Shown here piece by piece: positions 4,131 to 20,000 of a stretch of DNA of 20,000 nucleotides; position 1 is the first letter of the stretch; every line of letters starts with the position of its first letter. Origin of the DNA: Sphaeroforma arctica JP610 (lineage: Eukaryota); contig NW_014040153.1 of assembly GCF_001186125.1 (NCBI RefSeq), forward strand, positions 46,022 to 66,021. Direction: 5' to 3'. The notes beneath the pieces are model-generated. The model saw only the letters and a list, made by a program, of their open reading frames with translations. It did not search any database and was not told the origin of the DNA. A program made the translations under genes and the position numbers.

Positions 4131-4154
4131 TCCGTACGTGAGTCACTCGCCACT

Positions 4155-4843
4155 GACTAGAAATATAATCCCAGGTGGTTTAAACTGGCTCAAAAGATAT
4201 TTGGGCCACATACCATAGATATGTTTGCTGCACATCATAATGCACAACTATCCAATTACAGGACTTTAAATCATCCTTTGGGAGACACCTTTCAAATAGA
4301 CCTCTCCAAACATAATGTGTGGGCTAATCCACAATGGCAGTTAATTGCCCAGCTATTAAATTATATTCATATACCTAAAGCTACTATCACGTTGTGTTGC
4401 CCATTATGGAGTAAAGATCCATGGCTTAATAAATTGATNNNNNNNNNNNNNNNNNNNNNNNNNNNNNNNNNNNNNNNNNNNNNNNNNNNNNNNNNNNNNN
4501 NNNNNNNNNNNNNNNNNNNNNNNNNNNNNNNNNNNNNNNNNNNNNNNNNNNNNNNNNNNNNNNNNNNNNNNNNNNNNNNNNNNNNNNNNNNNNNNNNNNN
4601 NNNNNNNNNNNNNNNNNNNNNNNNNNNNNNNNNNNNNNNNNNNNNNNNNNNNNNNNNNNNNNNNNNNNNNNNNNNNNNNNNNNNNNNNNNNNNNNNNNNN
4701 NNNNNNNNNNNNNNNNNNNNNNNNNNNNNNNNNNNNNNNNNNNNNNNNNNNNNNNNNNNNNNNNNNNNNNNNNNNNNNNNNNNNNNNNNNNNNNNNNNNN
4801 NNNNNNNNNNNNNNNNNNNNATACTATAATATGTCGTATAGGT
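4155..4843 (+). pseudogene. Dam-like N6-adenine DNA methyltransferase domain in E1 pol (interrupted by the gap)
   Basis: In frame with RNase H: D*KYNPRWFKLAQKIFGPHTIDMFAAHHNAQLSNY...DTFQIDLSKHNVWANPQWQLIAQLL...ATITLCCPLWSKDPW. The C-terminal strand TIICRIG follows the gap. Confidence 0.8.
4439..4820. other. assembly gap (382 N)
   Basis: Run of N. Confidence 1.
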
Positions 4844-4958
4844 CCCATTGGAACAACCAAATGGACCCCTTCTGAGACCTTCCTTAACAAGGTCAAAGAA
4901 TCTGATATTCCACTCTCTACCCAATTGAACGCTAAGCAGTTCAAAAGCAATACAGCAC

Positions 4959-6359
4959 TTGAAGTCTGCGCACAAAAAAATACAATCTACTAATGACACT
5001 ACTGATAAGAAGCGTCAGTCTCTAGCTAGGACTCTGATTAATAACATACAGTCCAAGCCCGAGGTCTTTCAAACTCTATTTCTAAAGGGATTAATGAAAG
5101 ACAATCCTGAAGCGTATACACGTATAATGCGACTACTTAATAAGTCAGGTGTATCTAACGCACATGAGCGCACTTATGACACTCATGCGAAAGCAGGACA
5201 TGAGTCTGGAAACACTACAGACTTGGAGACCACGCAAGTAGATTCTCAACACCCTACCTTTATTCTGGAGGAGCAGAATGATGAAAACATTCTTGCTTGG
5301 CTGACGCAAAACCATAAGCTGAAGCACCAGAACGTAGTAGACGCACTTAAAGATGCGAAGCGAAATGGGATCGCGCACCCTATGCTGACAACTTTAGTTG
5401 ACAGAGTATATCAGTCATGTACAGACTGTGATCTCAATCAGATCAAGCGCTATGGGTTCGCACCGCTTAAGAGTGTGACTGAAGATGTTCAATGGCGCAG
5501 GGTCATCATTGATCTGACTGACCTGCCCACGTCCGAACACGCAGACGACCTTTACGTATGCCACTTCTTTGATGTGGCGTCACGGTTTATTTTGCTCTAT
5601 CCATTAAAGGATAAGAATACGCAGACCGTGGCAGAATTATGTTGCCAAGTCTTTGCTGACCACGGGTGGCCAGGTATTATGTTCACTGATAACGGTAGTG
5701 AGTTCTGCGATGACGTAATGGAAACGCTAGTACTCGTATCAGGCATATGCAATAAGAGAGGTGTGCCATATAAGTTGCAAACGCAAGGCGCGAATGAAAC
5801 GCGCCATAGAAGATTTAAGTACATCTTGCGTACTGCATTGACGGATGATGCAGATGATTGGCCGTACTACCTTAAGTGGGTACAAACACAGATGAACGAA
5901 TGTGCTGATCCGGTTACAGGAACTACAACCACTCACTATTTTCGTGGCACATATAGTGAGTTACAATTACCCTTTAACAAGGACGAACCTGATCACCATG
6001 AGTTACCATGGTTAGAGAAGGTACAACGTACTTATAACGTTGTATATCCTTGCTTGCGAGAAATACGCAATATAGCCTTATTGAAAAGGCAAAAGCGTTG
6101 GAACACTACCAAGAAGATAGCAGAGTATCAGGTCGGTGACAGAGTTAACATCCGTCAACGTAATCCCGATGCTACTGTATTATCATCTAAATGGATAGGT
6201 CCATATATAATCTCTGTAGCAGACACTAAAAGTGGAATGTACGAGGTAAATAACCCCGATGGTTCTAGTGCGCTTCATATAGGCACAAGTCGTATTCCGA
6301 CTACAGAGATTATACTCGCAAGAAGACATGACTCTAATGCCCCTCTTGATCGTTCTTAA
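4959..6359 (+). pseudogene. pol: linker and DDE integrase of E1
   Basis: HKLKH...CTDC zinc finger, VIIDLTD, FTDNGSEF, GANETRH and SKWIGPYII (GPY/F). This part is an open frame but belongs to a disrupted polyprotein. Confidence 0.93.
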
Positions 6360-6678
6360 TTTAAAGACATTATATGGAGAACGGATAAGGGAGGCTATAC
6401 ATACTATCGTACACGCTTTATAGACGGTACAATAGCTGAGTTAACTTCAGATGCGTTCGATAATCAAGACTATTTAAAAGCCTTTAATCGAAGAGATTAT
6501 ACTCGCAAGAAGACATGACTCTAATGCCCCTCTTGATCGTTCGGAATTTAAAGACAGTATATGGAGAACGGATAAGGGAGGCTATACATACTATCGTACA
6601 CGCTTTATAGACGGTACAATAGCTGAGTTGACTTCAGATGCTTTCGATAATCAAGACTGTTTAAAAGCCTTTAATCGA
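6305..6678 (+). repeat. 187-bp tandem duplication covering the chromodomain-like end of E1 pol
   Basis: 6305-6491 and 6492-6678 are nearly identical. Encodes EFKDIIWRTDKGGYTYYRTRFIDGTIAELTSDAFDNQDYLKAFNR. Confidence 0.93.
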
Positions 6679-7036: not shown

Positions 7037-7792
7037 TGTAATAAGCCGGGCCTCCACATTAGACTCTATGTTATAAACGTACTCTTAAGCAGTACGTAAA
7101 TTATAAACGTACTCTTAATAGTACGAGGAACTCAAGTTTCCTAACTGTACTCTTAATAGTACGAGGAACTTAAGTTTCCTAAAATGGTTTTTAATGGTTT
7201 AATTAATTAATACCTTTTCCATTTTATATATCAGATATTTGGACGAGGCCATTAAAAGGCCCCAGCAAAATACCAAACATAAGAGTTGGTCTAGTTCTAT
7301 TAATAGAACCATATTTACTTTCCATCTTTATTTATATCTGAATACTTCGGTAGCGAGATGGCTCAACCGAATATAGGTTTCTAGGGACTATGTTACCTAG
7401 TTGATCCTCCGATCAGCCAACTAGATGTGCCAGTCTGATGAAGGCTAAGTCGGTAATTCTTGATAAGTGGCAAGTCAATAACTAAGGACATCAAGAGTAT
7501 TTTTTCTTCTTCTAAAGAAAACCCCAATGAAACATACCATAGTTTCTAATAGAGCGACAACGAAACACTAAATAAAAACCCTTCGGCGGAAACAGTACTG
7601 AGAGAAATATATATAGGCAATATCTCAGCCTCATAATCCCTCATAGTATTGCTGTTTTCACGAGGCATACCTAACTTTACTAAAAGTCTCGTTTCGTTTA
7701 TTTGCTTTGATATTTTTTACGATACTTTGAACTTACCTACTCGTTTATTTACTCTATGGCGTTAATATCTCCTTAATAGACCGAATCTTACA
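7037..7792 (+). repeat. 3' LTR of E1 (~756 bp)
   Basis: TGTAA...TTACA termini, preceded by the purine-rich tract GGGTGAGGG. The 3' part matches 1-362. Confidence 0.88.
7071..7183 (+). repeat. palindromic tandem units in the U3 region of the E1 LTR
   Basis: GTACTCTTAA(T/G)(C)AGTACG three times and AGGAACT(C/T)AAGTTTCCT twice. Confidence 0.8.
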
Positions 7793-8670
7793 AAGACTCC
7801 AGCCGACGTTGAACGCTTCAAAGCACAACTTCTTTCGGAATTCGACTGCTCTGTCCTCGGCAAACCCACCTGGCTTCCCGGCTGTCGCATTATCACTAAC
7901 GTTGATTCTACTAGCATCGTCCGAACCTCATACATTAATGAGGCCCTCGAGCACTTAGATATCCCCACCGCTCATCCAGTCAACACCCCCCTTCCGACTC
8001 CTTTTACTACCCATACCGCGAACTCGTCGGCACCCTTCACTACCTCTTTATCCTAGCGCGCATCGATATCACCATCGCCGTCAACAATCTCTCACGTTTC
8101 ATTTTCAACCCTATCGAAGACCACTGGCTCGCTGCCTGTCGCGTCCTCCGCTATCTCCGAACCAGACCCACGCTTGGCCTCGAGTACAGCAAAACACCCC
8201 AACCGCTCTCCACTGACGCCTACGCTGATTCCGACTATGCCAGCTGCTTCACTACCCGTCGTTCCACCACCGGTTACGTCATTCGCGTATGTAGCACACA
8301 AGTGATTTGGAAAGTAAACGCCAAAAACTGTCAGCACTAGCACTGCTGAAGCCGAATACTTTACTGCCAGTGAAGCCGCTAAACACATACAGTGGCGCCG
8401 CAACTTCTTAACTGAACTTGGCTTTACCCCCGATGCCCCCACTGATATCCATAGCGATAACCAATCCGCCGTACATGTCATCCCCAACTCGGGCACTCCT
8501 AAGCAGCTGAAGCACGTCGTGTGTTCGCGTTCACCATATTCGTGACCTCCAGGACCAAGGTGTCACCGCCACCAAATACGTTAACTCTGCCGATAACATC
8601 GCAGACACCTTGACTAAGAGCCTTCCTCGACCCACCCACTCTAAACATACATCTAACACACTCACCGCCA
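7793..8670 (+). pseudogene. pol: Copia RT C-terminus and RNase H (frameshifted)
   Basis: FKAQLLSEFDCSVLGKPTWL, DITIAVNNLSRF, RVLRYL, AYADSDYA, RRSTTGYV, STAEAEY, SDNQSA, KHV, NIADTLTK. Confidence 0.93.
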
Positions 8671-8804
8671 TCCCCGACCCTGATCAACCGTCTCTTGTTG
8701 CAACACTAGCACATTCGTTCAATAACAACCATACACACATTACCAACACAACATCGTCCATACCTTCAGGAGAGCTCCGCCCGATCGATGCTCACCGCCA
8801 TCCG

Positions 8805-9256
8805 CCCTCTGCTTTGATCCATCCTCCACCCTCCTGTCTATATCTTCACTACTACCCATCTAGACACCAGCCCTACTTACTCTAGACCCACTATCGTACC
8901 TATATACATACGCACATAACGTGCACAACACCCTACTTACTCTAGACCCACTATCCGTAACATCGCTACCCTATACTACACCCACGTACCTATACACATA
9001 CGCACACAACGTGCACAACACCCGACTGGTGACCACCGCCAAGACTCCTCCCCCTTCTACCCTCTGATTTGATCCATCCTCCTCCCTCCTGGCTATATCT
9101 TCACTACTATCCATCTAGACACCCGTCCTACTTACTCTAGACCCACTATGCGTAACATCGCTACCCTATACTACACCCACGTACCTATACCCAGACGCAC
9201 ACAACGTGCACAACACCCGACTGGTGACTACCACCAATACTCCTCCCCCTTCTACT
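8805..9256 (+). repeat. compound imperfect tandem repeats in the Copia A 3' UTR
   Basis: CTACTTACTCTAGACCCACTAT three times, ACGTGCACAACACCC three times and TTTGATCCATCCTC twice. Confidence 0.88.
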
Positions 9257-9526
9257 TTGTCCTCTCAGTTCACGCTCGCCCCCAACGCCTGCGGCCCCAG
9301 GCGCCATCACGAAACTTCTAATATTTATCCGATTCGCTGCCACCACTTAATGAAGCCCCAGTCCATTGCCCCACCACCCTTTTTTGTTTTCATTTAACAA
9401 ATATTCCAGCCTCAATGCAGTCTGAGGAGAGCAAGTCTATATGTTGCTACCAGTACCCTAGTAGAGTATCCAACACATATGCAATTATGTATACACACTG
9501 TCCTTTCGCTTCCAAATTCAGGAGAG

Positions 9527-9709
9527 TGTTGAGACGAATTTATACGACTCAAATCCTAAAACCCCAATAAGCCCAAAGTATATTACGGTTCATATTCTGG
9601 CCGAATAATTGTAATAATATCTTCAAAGAGCACATGATAATTATTATACTATATACCCAATATGTAATATGATAATGAAGTTACTCCGTTAAGCAAATGT
9701 ATATTTCAA
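9527..9709 (+). repeat. 3' LTR of Copia A (~183 bp)
   Basis: Follows the PPT. Aligns over its length with the reverse complement of 12486-12668. The 3' terminus is slightly degenerate. Confidence 0.85.
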
Positions 9710-10074: not shown

Positions 10075-10755
10075 CTGACAAAATTGTTTCAATTTTCAAT
10101 TTAAGAGCCTTCGGTTTTGTGATGATTTATTAAAGGGTTAAGAAGAGGGGGATCGTCTCGAGTATTAATTGTTGTCAAAAGATATCCTTTTCAAACTGGT
10201 CATTAGTTTTAATGTCTACATCGTAGCTCGCGTGGTCGGCATTACTTCTTTGTAGAAACATACCAGAATAGTGGATCATAAATTCATTTTCTGGTTCTAT
10301 CATTTTGTTGAACACCCGCGACATAACCGTGTTAACACAACGTCTCCAGATTATTGACAAGCTGTGGGTTTTCACGACCACCACTCTATTTAATACCAGG
10401 TTTTAGGGGTTTAGGGTTTAGGGTTTAGGTACCTGACAAAATCGTTTAATTTTCAATTTAAGAGCTTTCAGCTTTGTAGTAATTTATCAAAGTGTTAAGA
10501 GAGGGATTGTCTCCGAGTATTAATTGTTGTCAAAGGATACCTTTTTCAGACTGGTCATAATAGTTTCAATTTCTAGCTCGTAGCTAGCGTGGTCGGTATT
10601 GCTTCTTTGTAGACACATACCAGAATAGTATATCATAAATTAATTTTCTGGTTCTATCGTTCTGTTGAACACCCGCGACATAACCGCGTGAACACAACGT
10701 CTCTAGATTATTGACGAGCTTTGGGTTTTCACGATCACCACACTATTTCATACCA
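10075..10755. repeat. diverged tandem duplication, period ~358 bp
   Basis: 10075-10398 aligns with 10433-10755. Confidence 0.9.
10399..10430 (+). repeat. interstitial telomere-like tract, about four TTTAGGG units
   Basis: GGTTTTAGGGGTTTAGGGTTTAGGGTTTAGGT. Confidence 0.75.
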
Positions 10756-12248: not shown

Positions 12249-12331
12249 GATCAAAGGTGGTGAGATCAGAGGTGGTGAGATCAGAGGTGGTGAGATCAGA
12301 GGTGATGAGATCAGAGGTGGTGAGATCAGAG
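12249..12331. repeat. 15-bp minisatellite (GATCAGAGGTGGTGA) x5.5
   Basis: Units start at 12249, 12264, 12279, 12294, 12309 and 12324. Confidence 0.95.
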
Positions 12332-13120: not shown

Positions 13121-13494
13121 TGTAGATATCATTTTGGTCATGTGCTTTACCCTAATCAGTTGTATCCATATTGGATAAACCAGGTTCAAAATGTTGTCTC
13201 TAACAAAACCCTAATATTAAATAAACCGTAATATTAATTAAAAACTCTACTCGGGAACTTCCTGACTATAACACCCCCCCCCCCCCCAAGCTGAAGCGCT
13301 ATAAGTGTACCCAATTCGAGAAATTGAAGGAATGTCCTGAAAAGGTGGTGTGCTAGCATTTAACCACAGAATCCCAGAGAGCTAAGGAATCGTTTATTTG
13401 TTCACCACACGGGCAGGTGACTAGAAGCAAGTAAAAGAAAATATGTATCTATAACGTATATAATAAGTTATATCTGGTCACGACGGCGTTTACG

Positions 13495-13624
13495 TACGCG
13501 TGTCGGTGTGTCCGTCGAATGCCCAAGCAGTTTCTCATGTCGACACCCCCTCAAGCCAGCGTATAATGTATTCGAGTTTACCCGTGTCGTCATTCGTCCT
13601 GTGTTTGATAACATGACGGAATGC
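13495..13624 (-). pseudogene. chromodomain of E2
   Basis: AFRHVIKHRTNDDTGKLEYIIRWLEGVST*ETAWAFDG, in a frame not shown in the ORF track. Confidence 0.75.
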
Positions 13625-14764
13625 GGAGCCCCCTTCTTGTCAGAGATGCCCATATCTATGTGTATGGTCATAGCTCTCACCGTTACAGCTCGTAACACCA
13701 TATGGACCAATAACGGTGGCCGTCTCTCTGGTTTCACCATCACTACTTCGTCTGTATCGAAGTGCACCAGACCATGGGGGTGAAGACGATCGAATGTCTT
13801 CATTAGCTTGTATACGGCTTGGTAATCTTGTGCAACGTGGGTGGAGTTGTGTACTGTAACTGAGGTCAAGTCGTTGAGCCCAAATGTCATTGGTAACCAG
13901 TTATTGCTCAGGTACATCGTCGGTTCAATCAGCAAACGGAACATGTCGGCGGCCGAAATATACGCTAAACGGAGCGCTCTTATGTCGTCGTGAGATACGT
14001 AGATTCTGGTGAGTATCGTAAAGAGTAGGCGTTTGTCCCAGGCCTGGAGTATCGCCTCGCAGTAGAAACGTATCGACCGTGTTATCTATTTGTACCGACG
14101 TTCAGTAGCGCCGAGAACTTGGGTTCGATAAAGTGGTGAGGCTTTATAAAGTATCCCAACCACTTTGACAAGTGGGGCCACCAGTTGGTGAATGCTAGTC
14201 CTATATCCGTTTGCAGTCTGTGTAAGAAGCCATGTTCGCCAGATATCGCCTGTAACGTGCGAGCGGTCGTCTCCATGGACATATCAGGTGTAGCACGTAA
14301 AACTGAGTACCCCGATGCAACGACTAACTCATGCAGAACAAATTTATCCTGTTGGATAGATGTTACCGGCATCGAAATGCAGTCGACCTGGAGATGTGAT
14401 CCCAGAGGTACTGGGCGTCGAAGCTGATCACAGGATGAAACCTCTCGTCCGAAGAGTATTGTCCCAAGCGCTGCCAGCATTGTCCTTTGATTTATGTAGC
14501 CAACTCAAATGCCCCGGGCCAGACATGTCCGTTCTATTGCAACTGTTGGCCTGTGTCCTATTCATGGTGTGCTTGTGTGAGCTGTGTTCGGCGCTGGTGT
14601 TCCGCTGGTGTTCCGTTAATAAAGGCCGGTTGTGCAACGTCGCTTGCTATCGCCACCGAAATCTCTCGTACGGCGTCCATATATTGTTGGTATGGCATGC
14701 GACGAGGCTCTGCATATTCCAGACGTTGAGTAAAACTCTCCGTCAATCGGAAGACCGATGATGG

Positions 14765-15150
14765 TCCTACGTGTGCGACTACTGTATGGCCCCATTGAAT
14801 CTTGCCGCAAGGCTATTTTGCATATTTCAAGAAAGTGTGCGGGCTACGAGGCACCAACACTAGCTCTGCTTGTAGTATCGAAACCACGGTGCTCTTGAGG
14901 TCCACGGTAGGCACACCGTCGTAGTATTCCCGTCTGATATAATTTTCCGGAGCGTACGGTGTATCAATTTCCACGGTCGTTTATTCAACCGTCCACTAGG
15001 GCCCATTCATTATCAAACGCTTCTCTGTGAATGTTTTTTGGTCCAGAAGTGGACAAGCTGTGTATTATGTGGCGCTGCGAATACGTCTATATTATTATGG
15101 CCAAATATCCATTGTGCCTGTTCGAAGTGGCTTAGAAATAATTTTTAGCA
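14765..15150 (-). pseudogene. Dam-like adenine methyltransferase domain of E2
   Basis: *KLFLSHFEQAQWIFGHNNIDVFAAPHNTQLVHFW / EAFDNEWALVDG*IN / PWKLIHRTLRKIISDGNTTTVCLPWTSRAPWF ... QWGHTVVAHVG (slashes mark frameshifts). Confidence 0.78.
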
Positions 15151-16659
15151 ACCTGCATAAAGGATTGCCGGTATATCTGTTTCAGCGGTGTTCATGTATC
15201 CGACTGAGCATGTCAGGTAGGGCGTTCTTCTCACCAAGAATATGTGAAATAGTGAAATTGAATGGCGCGATGATGTGATGCCAATGCTGCATCATAGGGT
15301 TGAGCTTGAGCCGGCTGTTCATGTATACTAATGCCTTGTGATTGGTAAACATTATAAACCGCTGGCCGTGAAGGTATTCCCGGGAGTGTGTCCACCCATA
15401 GACTATTGCTAGAAGTTCCTTCATTGGTGTTGCGTAGTACCGGATTGAGCATCTTACTGAAGAACATGAGGTAGTGCTTCTTGCCTTCGACCCATTGGAA
15501 TAATGCACCGTCTACCTCGTAATCTCTGGCGTCCGTTTCCAGGTTGAGTGGCATATCATCCACCGGAAAGTGGAGTGTTACGGTATTGACGATAGCGTCT
15601 TCATTGCATTTCATGCGTCTGATCAACGCTGGACGCCGTGGGGAAAGCGGACGTTTGTTGGCATGCCGTTCGGCATCAAACCTGCATCGTGAATCATCCA
15701 GGCACGGATGGAGCATGAATTCAAAGTGTGGATGGCCTAGATAGCCTAAAGACATGGGCGTGGGTCACAACAGTGTTAGGAAGCACTGGTCGAGCATGAA
15801 AAATCTCATCGTGGCGTGTGTGAAGCACAACGCTAAATTGAACATCAAGAAGTGTTGCTTTGGGATCTCAGATCGGCCGGTCATCGCGTTGGGGCGAGTG
15901 GTGGATGAGAACGGGTCGTACATTAGTGAGGATCGGATGGAATCCATCATGCGCATGCCGCCGCCCACGGATAAGGATCTCTTGGCCTAGTGGTATCACA
16001 CGATTGGTTATTGGAGCCAATACATCCCTGACTACTCTAGGATCATGTCCCCTATCTCGAATCGGAAGAAAGAAGTACCCTTTATGTGGGATCGGACGCA
16101 GCAGGCAGTCTACGATCGGATTCGGGAGGAGGTGGCCAAGGAAGGGGTGTTGGTCGAGCCAGGATTCGAAGACAAACTGGAGATGTATTGCGATGCCTGT
16201 GACTCGGTAGGAGTAAGTGGGAGGTTGTTTGCTCGGCGCAAGGGTAAGCTATGCCGTGTGGGGTTCTGGTCTTCGAAGTTCAGCCCGGCGCAGTTGGGCT
16301 ACCACATTACGGACAAGGAGGCTATAGCCATCGTGTATTGTCTTCATAAGTCCTGGAGGATTGTCAAGCGTTCGCGCCACCCGCTGACGGTGTTCACGGG
16401 CCATGAGCCGTTGGTGCGTATGCTAGCGCAAGACCCCACGTCGTATGAGTCCACGGTTAGATATAGATATATGGCTAGATACGCGCAGGTGCTGCGTGAT
16501 TTCGACACTATCCTAAAGCATGTGCCGGGAGAATTGAATCCAGTGGCGGATGTGCAATCTCGGCTGGTATACCAAATTGACCCAATCATGCGAGCGAGGC
16601 GTCTACCGGCGAAGGATAGAGCGCGTTGGGCTGAGCAAGCGGTGGTGAAGCCGGAGACA

Positions 16660-17055
16660 GAATCTTATGCAGTGAACAGGGCGCTCTTTGACAAGACCGG
16701 GGACAAGTTTGGTCCGTTTGACGCTGAAAGGTTCGCGCATCCAACGAATTATCGATGAAGCCGTACTACCAGCCTACCTTGGCTGGGGGTGTGTTTGCGT
16801 CGAGGACGTGGATGGGTCCACGTTAGTACTTTAACCCCAGGTGGTCAGACTTGGGCAAGGTTGTCACCAGGATTCGCAGGGACAAGGCTACGGTGACGAT
16901 GGTCTGTCCGTATGCACCGGAGGCACGGTGGTTTATGGAAATGGTACCTCTGCTGTCAGCAGATCCTATGGTGATATATCTCAAGTAGGGGATCTTCCTC
17001 CGACACGGGAATGAGCAGATGGATGCGTCAGGTTTTATTTCGCTGGTCTGCCATA
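16660..17055 (+). pseudogene. Dam-like adenine methyltransferase domain of E3
   Basis: In frame with RNase H: ESYAVNRALFDKTGDKFGPFDAERFAHPTNYR / MKPYYQ...GVFASRTWMGPR*YFNPRWSDLGKVVTRIRRDKATVTMVCPYAPEARWF...SLVCHM. Confidence 0.75.
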
Positions 17056-17819
17056 TGAGACATTACCGGGACCACAAGCTGCGTGGAGACTTCTGGGAGG
17101 AGTTGGAAGCTAAGCGGCCAGCTTGGGAGAAGCTGGCTGCTGCGGCAGTACTACGTGCGGAAGACGTAGTGTCCTGTATGACACAGAGTGGTGTCGTAGG
17201 GGCGGTAGCGCATCCAAGTGGGAAATCGGTGCGTAGAGGAATGCCAGCGGAGGAGGCTGGTATTGAAACAACCCCATGTTAGTGCAGTGAATGCACTAAT
17301 GTTTACCACTCAGTCTTTGCGGGCGGCTAAGGGTGTTCTGAATAAGTATCTGAAGCATGCGGAAGTATGGCTGGGAGGGGCATCTGCTAACCCTAGTGAG
17401 GGATCGCTGGGTGCGATGGCAGAAACTTGGCTGGAGTCAGCTGAGGTGAGCACGAGTGAGGGGTCGCTCGGTGCTATATACACTCGGAGTATGAGTGATA
17501 AGTCGCCGGTGCTTACGCGGCGTGCGCGCAAGGCAGCGGTGGTTGCGAACAGCCACCCGGTCTTGGAGGAAATGGACATTGATAAATCACAGGGTGATAC
17601 ATCAGTGGAGGACCATCCGCGAGAGTGTGAGGAAGCACTCACCAAACAGCAGTTAGTCCAGTTAGAGCAGAATCCGGCGGATGGTGTGCCACTGGATGAC
17701 GCGGAAGAGCCACCAGTGGATAAGCTGGGTGACAAGCTGTTGCGACAACGCTTGCGAAGCTTGAAGCGTTCTGTGTTTGGTGTGGAAGTGGGGGGGGTGA
17801 TGTCTTCGAGCGTATCGTT

Positions 17820-18950
17820 AGGTACATGCCAGTGCCAAGAGGCTGGATGATCTGGTGCGCAGGCTATGGGGTTGGGCTGGCATGAAAAAGATGTATGATC
17901 ATGTCCGGAAGAGCTGCAATGCGTGCCAGGCGTTCGCTGAGGAACTAGGCTTGGCGAAAGGCTTGCTGCTGCTGCCAGTGCGCCCATAAGAGGTCATGCG
18001 CGAGATAAGCATGAATTTCATGGACTTTAACACCGTTAACGGACAATCCAAGGTCTTGCTGGTAGTGGACACGCAGACTAGGATGTTGTTTGCGCGATTG
18101 TGTCCTGTATCGACGGATGGGCCAGGTGTGGTCCGCTTCTTAGAAAAGCATGTGTTGGCGTGGTGATCGCCGGCACGGCTGGTTATGGACGCGGACAAGA
18201 GGTTCCAGAATGACAATGTTAATCCATTCTGAGAACGGTGGGCATCGAACTACACTGGGTGACGGTCGACAATCATCAGAGCAATAGCAGACTGGAGATG
18301 TTGAGTAGGACAATGAAGGATTGGTTGCGCCGGGAGATTGAGGCTAAGGATGAATCGCCTCATGCTTGGTTACACTTAGTTTACGATATGGTGCGGGTGT
18401 ACTGGGTGACGGCCGACAATCATCAGAGCAACGGCAGACCGGAGACGTTGATTAGGACAATTAAGTATTGGTTGCGCCGGGAGATTGAGGCTAATGATGA
18501 ATCGCCTCATGCTTGGTTACACTTGGGTTCACGATATGGTGCGGATGTACAATACCACCAGGACCTCGGTGGCAGGGTTTGTGCCATATTTCCACCTGAC
18601 AGGGAGGGACTTTAATGTACAGGTTAGTCCGAAGTTACAGGACAGGGTGTTGTCCTTGTTGGAGTCAGAGCAAGGCACAGGCGATGGTCCGTGACGCGGT
18701 AGCAGCGGTCAGGGACAGGCGGGCTCGACTGGAACAGCAGACAAGTCGGCGGGAGGATGTCCCTCTGTTGGCAGTCTGCTCGAGGGTCTGGTATCGGCTG
18801 CGAGGGAAGTCTCACGACCTGTCTTCGCGGTGGGGTGGACCGGCGCGTGTAGTGGCGGTTCAAGCACCCTTTACGCATACGGTTGAGATGCCTGATGGAT
18901 CTCGCCGTACTTTCTTGAGGGAGGAGTTGAAGCCGCACGTTGAGAAGCTC
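17820..18950 (+). pseudogene. pol: integrase of E3
   Basis: Zinc finger remnant, core with the first catalytic D read as N (MNF), and a GPY/F-like motif. Several stops and frameshifts. Confidence 0.88.
18254..18548 (+). repeat. 147-bp tandem duplication inside the E3 integrase
   Basis: 18254-18400 vs 18401-18548. WVT(V/A)DNHQSN...SPHAWLHL occurs twice. Confidence 0.93.
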
Positions 18951-19436
18951 TCGGAGCAAGAGGAACGGCGCTCTGTGGTGGCTAATATATCATTCACATC
19001 TGACTGAGCAGCAGGATGGCTACCGTCAAGCGTTGGGTCATGCCATGCGTAGAAGACGCGTGTCTGGTCGGGTGAGCTTTGTTCAGCCTGGGGACGCTGG
19101 GAATTCTGGTGTGACGAGGCGAATCTGCCAGTTTATGCACCACTGGTGGACGGCGAAGACGGGAAGAAGGTGCTTGGTGAGGACTATCAGGTCTTGTTGA
19201 TGCGGGTGTTACCGCTGAAGAAGAGTCGTGATGTATTTAAGAGGAAGATCTTGAATGGCTTCGCTTTTGCACAGTCGGCGTTCTACAAGAAGCAGCATCT
19301 ACACTTGGGGTGAACTACAGATAGCAGATAATGTATCTGAGCTGCCGTCGCGTCATTAGTTATAGTGCCTGCGTTAGTTTGTTGACAAATTCTCAGACCG
19401 TTGAGAAGAACTCTATCCTCCACGAGGGGGTGATGA

Positions 19437-20000
19437 TGTAAGGATATCTTGTGTATAGTGTATATAGTGTAGGTAGTGAGGGCTACCCACAGTCTGGCTA
19501 TGAAAGTTGCATAAGGAACTATGTTATCTATCCTAGCGAGGGGTTGTGATTGACATTGGGTGGAATATTAGGGGTGTTAGCCTGAGAGTATAACCCTAGG
19601 GGTATAAGTAGTTTGGTTAGGTGGCTAACCTAGGCCTGGGACTCGATTAAACCAAGCCTGGGACCTGGGGAAGGGTCAGCTTTAGAGTTACCCATAAGCA
19701 GAGGCCGGGAAGAGCCCGTACATAGAGTTGCCTATATTGTGAGGCCTGAGGGTCTCAGATTTGAGAGACTCGGGTTTTGGCTCAAAGATGAGTCATCATC
19801 AAATATTATGTAGTCGCGACCACTGTTGTGGGGCAGGACTACTTTGGGAGTAAATTGATAATATTACTAACAAACATATTTGACTATATAGATAGAGTGT
19901 GTGGCAGGGGAACTGCCACACGCTACACTACTAAACTAATAACCTAGTGAATAAACCTGTAATTTGTGCTAGTCTATCTATTGTTTAGAATCACTAACAA
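19437..20000 (+). repeat. 3' LTR of E3 (probably incomplete)
   Basis: TGTAAGG directly after a purine tract. Non-coding, with a TATA-like run near 19885 and AATAAA near 19950. No second copy in the window. Confidence 0.6.

Follow-up and report, generated by a model that had tools for sequence, protein, structure and literature searches.

A Decayed Ty3/gypsy Retrotransposon Copy with a Dam-Like Methyltransferase Domain between RNase H and Integrase in Sphaeroforma arctica

Methyltransferase-Bearing Retrotransposons and the Present Locus

In DIRS elements, reverse transcriptase (RT), RNase H (RH), and methyltransferase (MT) are combined with a tyrosine recombinase and inverted terminal repeats, in the absence of an aspartic protease or a DDE integrase (PMC3783388), and the DAM domain has been placed in these elements (PMC6338049). 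Gypsy-DNMT3 and other cytosine-methyltransferase retrotransposons carry a captured DNA methyltransferase, as summarised in a recent preprint (10.64898/2026.05.21.726589). The same preprint (Fernandez-Moreno et al., bioRxiv, May 2026) introduces the DAM-LTRs; it names chlorophytes, an ochrophyte, ichthyosporeans, Pyropia, and Euglena as hosts, gives NPP as the motif, and describes an ichthyosporean lineage with Abeoforma, Sphaeroforma, and Pirum elements.

The locus considered here lies in a stretch of 20,000 nucleotides from Sphaeroforma arctica JP610 (the window), which consists in part of several decayed LTR retrotransposons, three of them (E1, E2, and E3) with a Dam-like domain. E2, the main subject, resembles the DAM-LTRs: the backbone is of the Ty3/gypsy type, the domain belongs to Pfam Dam (PF05869), NPP is found in its relatives, and both E1 and E2 cluster with proteins of Abeoforma whisleri. 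Unlike the DAM-LTRs of the preprint, E2 is decayed and falls below the ORF-based screen at E 1e-5. With the DIRS elements, E2 shares a PF05869 domain directly after RNase H; it differs from them in its DDE integrase, in the Ty3 type of its RNase H, and in the protease that its relatives possess. No tyrosine recombinase family was found in the Pfam-scanned pieces, and no inverted pair flanks E2 in the window. Unlike Gypsy-DNMT3 and its kind, which carry a C5-cytosine enzyme, the E2 domain is of the N6-adenine type. The RH-MT-IN architecture (IN, integrase) is already published, and E2 is an extra decayed copy of it. Frameshifts hide two of the three copies in the window, and ORF-based screens therefore undercount DAM-LTRs. 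To the published picture, the window adds the Dam copy of E3, a divergent chromodomain-like tail, and a suggested reading of the fold as a catalytic core without target recognition.

The Decayed Element E2 and Its Intact Relatives

E2 belongs to the Ty3/gypsy LTR retrotransposons and has lost its 5' part; in its Pol, a Dam-like domain stands between RNase H and integrase (Table 1). It is collinear with residues 493-1163 of an intact relative, P0013, and is cut off near 15632 against E3 on the opposite strand; the window contains no gag, protease, or RT of E2, and the nearest relatives, P0013 and P0160, have both protease and RT. The RNase H is of the Ty3 type (Pfam RT_RNaseH, E 2e-12 on 15185-15511) and is identical to that of P0013 at 52 of 122 positions (43%). 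Downstream of it, the DDE integrase region matches P0013 at 95 of 278 positions (34%), with a core profile score of 155 and a Pfam rve match at E 0.18 on a single piece; the retained D, D, and E are presumably the catalytic triad. Beyond the integrase, the tail is the top match in the window to a profile of clade tails, albeit a weak one (iE 0.0066). The candidate LTR start has no second copy within the window, and the LTR end is undefined; downstream of that start, a stop-to-stop frame of 152 amino acids (minus strand, 13108-12650) has no Pfam match.

Table 1. Coordinates of the features of E2 and of the Dam-like domains of E1 and E3 in the window.
Feature	Positions	Strand	Evidence or remark
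E1 Dam-like domain astride the 382-N gap, motif N-P-Q-W	4149..4880	+	Pfam Dam E 1.7e-4
E2 candidate polypurine tract (14 G) then TG, likely 3' LTR start	13272..13287	-	Sequence
E2 chromodomain-like tail, divergent, one stop	13514..13621	-	Pfam Chromo E 0.046, below cut-off, sole family listed
E2 decayed integrase	13670..14570	-	Zinc-finger-like start; core ~14402-13943; D, D, E kept
E2 Dam-like N6-adenine methyltransferase domain	14765..15144	-	3 frameshifts and 2 internal stops; shuffle-tested alignments
E2 catalytic motif IV, N-[break]-P-W	14971..14981	-	Base missing near 14977 interrupts the motif
E2 D-V-F-A (D-x-F-A motif)	15076..15087	-	D and A invariant in the alignment of relatives
E2 end of RT connection region and Ty3/gypsy RNase H	15197..15632	-	Frameshift near 15422; another near 15190 before MT
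E3 third Dam-like domain, N-P-R-W, after RNase H of a decayed gypsy element	16657..17015	+	Profile score 105.8

The peptides by which a first-pass annotation had recognized the domain were all located on the minus strand by three-frame translation. FEQAQWIFGHNNIDVFAAPHNTQL begins at 15126; EAFDNEW follows in a different frame at ~15023-15003; the letters of IN-x-PW occupy 14984-82 (I), 14981-79 (N), 14976-74 (P), and 14973-71 (W), with two bases at 14978-77 between N and P; CLPWTSRAPWF ends at ~14881; and WGHTVVAHVG corresponds to 14794-14765. The frameshifts of the domain fall near 15024, 14977, and 14876-14890, its internal stops at 14987-85 and 14815-13, and an additional stop at 15147-45 stands at its start. 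The D-x-F-A motif is one that we take to be the likely SAM-binding motif I. Along the whole alignment to P0013, 12 frameshifts and 8 stops (20 breaks) are counted; the copy is dead and cannot make the protein.

Pfam Dam responds weakly to the first 43-residue piece of the E2 domain (E 0.034), and the assignment was evaluated by frameshift-aware alignment. The E1 domain (4161-4436) aligned to 14700-15200 with a score of 109 and 30 identities among 74 aligned positions, whereas 100 shuffled queries reached 29 +/- 4.7 with a maximum of 54 (z 17), so that the likeness to E1 stands far above shuffled controls. A profile built from 28 intact relatives scored 110.8 against E2, with columns 15-143 falling onto 15144-14765, against 17.0 +/- 2.0 (maximum 22) for 60 dinucleotide shuffles and 19.9 for the wrong strand (z 48). 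Moreover, the domain is identical to that of P0013 at 49 of 125 positions (39%), and the P0013 domain itself scores 53.8 bits on Pfam Dam, for which the cut-off is 28.1. That E2 is a dead gypsy copy with a Dam-like (PF05869) domain is hence nearly certain.

A search with the RH and MT of E1 together led to two intact Pol proteins, P0002 and P0003, at 67% identity, and HMMER against 1.84 billion representatives yielded the 150 best matches. Among the matches listed, the closest intact relatives of E2 are P0013, P0160, and P0161, gypsy Pol proteins with 47.5-56.2 bits on Pfam Dam (PF05869). The domain is present in 34 of the 160 collected proteins, a set chosen by the query and hence not a frequency. 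These relatives are single ORFs with the Pfam order RT-RH-Dam-IN, to which a protease is added where the start is present (PR-RT-RH-MT-IN). Lesser searches contributed little: the E1 domain alone retrieved none of six candidates when longer proteins were sought through a word index (a weak search), phmmer of the same domain against PDB sequences gave no match at E 10, and a metagenome scan with P0161 yielded one locus of 1457 nt without flanks.

The linkage of RH, MT, and IN, proposed in the annotation to be real and conserved, is borne out by the collinearity of E2 with P0013 and by the same order in the intact single ORFs; since P0013, P0160, and P0161 are intact, this order is no artefact of the gap in E1. 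Both flanks of that gap map inside one domain of P0002, at residues 679 and 713, and therefore the gap lies inside the E1 domain and the linkage of E1 stands by itself. The gap measures 382 N (4439-4820), yet an intact relative needs only ~33 codons there, so either the gap is over-sized or an insertion is present.

It is the sole gap in the window; the E2 stretch holds no N, in agreement with the annotation. Contigs of 20 of 24 runs contain part or all of 13300-15700, and in three of the four runs compared a single contig of 3202-3203 nt spans 13200-15659 with 0 substitutions. Of these three, X4 and X15 are flagged as a possible source and X6 is unflagged; the X6 contig differs by a single-base gap within the poly-G at 13274. 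From X16, the fourth run, came pieces with 0 differences at 14622-14966 and 14938-15441. No RNA run was listed as containing the stretch, which is evidence in neither direction. The breaks of E2 are genomic and no assembly errors, because contigs of other runs carry identical breaks. The spanning contig reaches <31 letters past the junction of E2 and E3 near 15635, and bridging of the junction is not established by it. Contigs 80-95% identical to E2 also exist, some of which join RH and MT pieces (joints 14977-15463, 14717-15452, and 15126-15363).

Constraint, Fold, and Putative Role of the Domain

In eight of eight intact pairs, the MT domain is more conserved (37-80% identity) than the linker between MT and IN (17-42%) and is about as conserved as RT, RH, and IN, and therefore the domain was under constraint. 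Motif IV reads NPP[WFY] in 22 of 30 non-redundant intact relatives and NPPW in the three nearest to E2; within the E1/E2 clade, NPP is kept in 14 of 15 members and D-x-x-A in all of them. The eight intact relatives without NPP read CPPW, FPPT, HPPW, NIPF, and others, and all three window copies have a broken or altered motif: N-x-P-W in E2, NPQW in E1, and NPRW in E3.

An AlphaFold2 model of P0011, made with 32 sequences, is confident across the MT domain. When residues 218-356 of the model were compared by VIA-align, the best matches were PCIF1 (Z 10.5, rmsd 2.7, 130 aligned) and DIMT1 (Z 9.0), with KsgA/Dim1/Erm enzymes above T4 Dam (Z 7.7) and E. coli Dam (Z 7.5). The predicted fold is that of a Rossmann amino-methyltransferase in which the D-x-F-A and NPPW motifs are present and a separate target-recognition domain is missing. 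The structural match spans 7-259 of T4 Dam and 10-270 of E. coli Dam, ranges that give the ends only; since they start at 7 and 10, they suggest, as a lead, that the whole catalytic core may be present and the target-recognition part missing. In the preprint, the domain is instead described as lacking the first catalytic half of Dam. A Foldseek list was filled by RNase H and was uninformative for the MT domain, and a fold of P0127 computed without an alignment was discarded (pLDDT 35).

Taken as a whole, the explanation that E2 is dead, that its domain was inherited from an ancestor shared with E1, and that active copies would methylate their own reverse-transcription product is judged fairly probable. 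Its mechanistic part, in which adenine methylation by active copies would fall on the cDNA or RNA-DNA intermediate of the element itself and host AMT1 would maintain the mark, is tentative, standing slightly short of even. The protease of the element would cut Pol inside the particle; the MT domain, held beside RT and integrase, which supply the substrate, would use SAM and place 6mA on the cDNA or the RNA-DNA intermediate; after integration, the AMT1 system of the host would maintain 6mA and thereby keep the new copy transcribed, following the model in the preprint (10.64898/2026.05.21.726589). For two ichthyosporeans, the preprint reports that DAM-LTRs have higher 6mA and higher transcription; its test of activity by expression in E. 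coli was negative.

The negative E. coli test in the preprint, together with the eight intact relatives without NPP and the altered motifs of the window copies, would also suit a domain kept in Pol for binding or structure and not for catalysis, with the 6mA of the elements originating from host AMT1 alone. This alternative is unlikely: NPP and D-x-x-A are kept in the E1/E2 clade at the frequencies given above, and the window copies are decayed throughout, as the 20 breaks of E2 illustrate, so that neutral decay may account for the changes in their motifs. Somewhat less likely still is a domain that methylates RNA, namely the genomic RNA of the element or single-stranded adenine, and not DNA. 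The top structural match, PCIF1, methylates RNA, the KsgA/Dim1/Erm enzymes also precede T4 Dam, the model is without a target-recognition domain, and the preprint records no activity on E. coli DNA; against this, the sequence family is Pfam Dam PF05869, the differences in Z are small and a common fold proves no function, and the preprint reports 6mA enrichment on DAM-LTR DNA. The intact P0013, P0160, P0161, P0002, and P0003 are suited to testing what the domain methylates.

Descent of E1, E2, and E3 and Other Elements of the Window

E1 and E2 are identical at 50 of 135 positions in RH (37%) and 33 of 92 in MT (36%), with almost no DNA similarity, and therefore represent two separate families. 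The annotation had called E2 a second, independent family; the separateness of the family stands, but a separate capture of the domain is not supported, as both backbone and MT trees unite E1 and E2 in a clade whose rows all carry the Dam domain. The backbone trees were made from RT, RH, and IN with the MT columns excluded, and E2, which has no RT, was placed by RH and IN (286 columns). The all-Dam clade with E1 and E2 comprises 14 of 53 rows in the first tree (SH-aLRT 99), 12 of 31 in the second (SH-aLRT 100), made after 22 rows, E3 among them, had been removed as long, gappy, or redundant, and 9 of 23 in the third (SH-aLRT 99); a tree from RH only was poorly resolved. In the MT tree, E1, E2, E3, and 19 other rows are joined at 90/97 (midpoint root, no DIRS outgroup). 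Three clade members, out of ten looked up, are Abeoforma whisleri proteins from EukProt: P0007 joins E1 and E2 on the backbone, and P0007, P0018, and P0126 do so on the MT tree. Among the matches, none was identified as a sequence from Sphaeroforma or Pirum.

Judged from these sequence comparisons, E1 and E2 very likely share descent, probably through one capture followed by divergence. Separate captures of the domain by E1 and E2 from DIRS elements would be compatible with their identity of merely 36-37%, with the at least four separate transfers overall that the preprint infers, and with the lack of a DIRS outgroup in the trees; they are nevertheless highly improbable, given a backbone clade (SH-aLRT 99-100) in which every one of the 9-14 rows is Dam-positive, an identical insertion site in E1 and E2, and a concordant MT tree. 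A chance likeness, an artefact of assembly, or the insertion of a DIRS fragment into a gypsy element can practically be dismissed, for the weak Pfam Dam match of E2 itself is outweighed by z values of 17 and 48 against shuffles, by the same sequence in contigs of unflagged runs, and by intact single ORFs in RH-MT-IN order.

The Dam-like domain of E3 exceeds its own controls by a wide margin (60 shuffles, 18.2 +/- 2.7, against the profile score in Table 1; HMM iE 3.2e-16). In free trees, the E3 backbone lies outside the E1/E2 clade on a long branch, and an AU test fails to reject membership (p 0.49). E3 is a third decayed gypsy element on the plus strand (15640-19300) with a very divergent RT and RH, arranged head to head with the truncated E2. 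Its 3' LTR may be the TGTTA...TAACA stretch that comes after a purine run and occupies 19575-20000.

The ichthyosporean DAM-LTR lineage is stated to lack chromodomains in the preprint (10.64898/2026.05.21.726589). The tails of the clade proteins give no match above the Pfam chromodomain cut-off. An independent profile was made from 8 Pfam-positive chromodomains of other elements and calibrated with 280 shuffles (best, 10.1 bits); 7 of 14 clade proteins exceed the best shuffle, with Abeoforma P0007 at 27.8 bits, while P0013 and P0160 score ~2 bits and P0002 and P0003 have no score. Divergent, sub-cut-off chromodomain-like tails are seen in E2 (minus strand, 13621-13514), P0007, P0014, P0161, and P0166. 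A broader reading, in which the E1/E2/Abeoforma lineage throughout would pair a minimal adenine-methyl writer without target recognition with a cryptic chromodomain reader, and the writer of E3 would have been captured once more, in the same host, by a gypsy backbone only distantly related, giving three deeply diverged Dam families in 20 kb, is regarded as unlikely. The description in the preprint would be refined by a cryptic chromodomain together with a core that has no target recognition, and the negative result of its E. coli assay could be explained in this way.

Several other features of the window were recorded. E1 has direct repeats at 18-362 and 7472-7792, and a 187-bp tandem duplication (97%) at 6305-6678 lies at the end of its integrase, in a chromodomain-like tail. 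The CpG and ApT ratios are nothing special. Copia-like pieces on the plus strand (7793-9709) include an RVT_2 fragment (E 0.0015) and a likely LTR at 9527-9709; in further copia-like material on the minus strand (12668-11356), a related LTR in inverted orientation (12668-12486) precedes an ORF of gag-like, coiled-coil character and a tandem array of 15-bp units (12249-12331). A 357-bp AT-rich repeat occurs in two copies (81-91%) at 10081-10755. A small relic on the minus strand (10043-9954) preserves PWRHTIICRIG, from the C-terminal portion of a Dam domain of the E1 type, and its DNA is nearly the same as that of E1 just past the gap.
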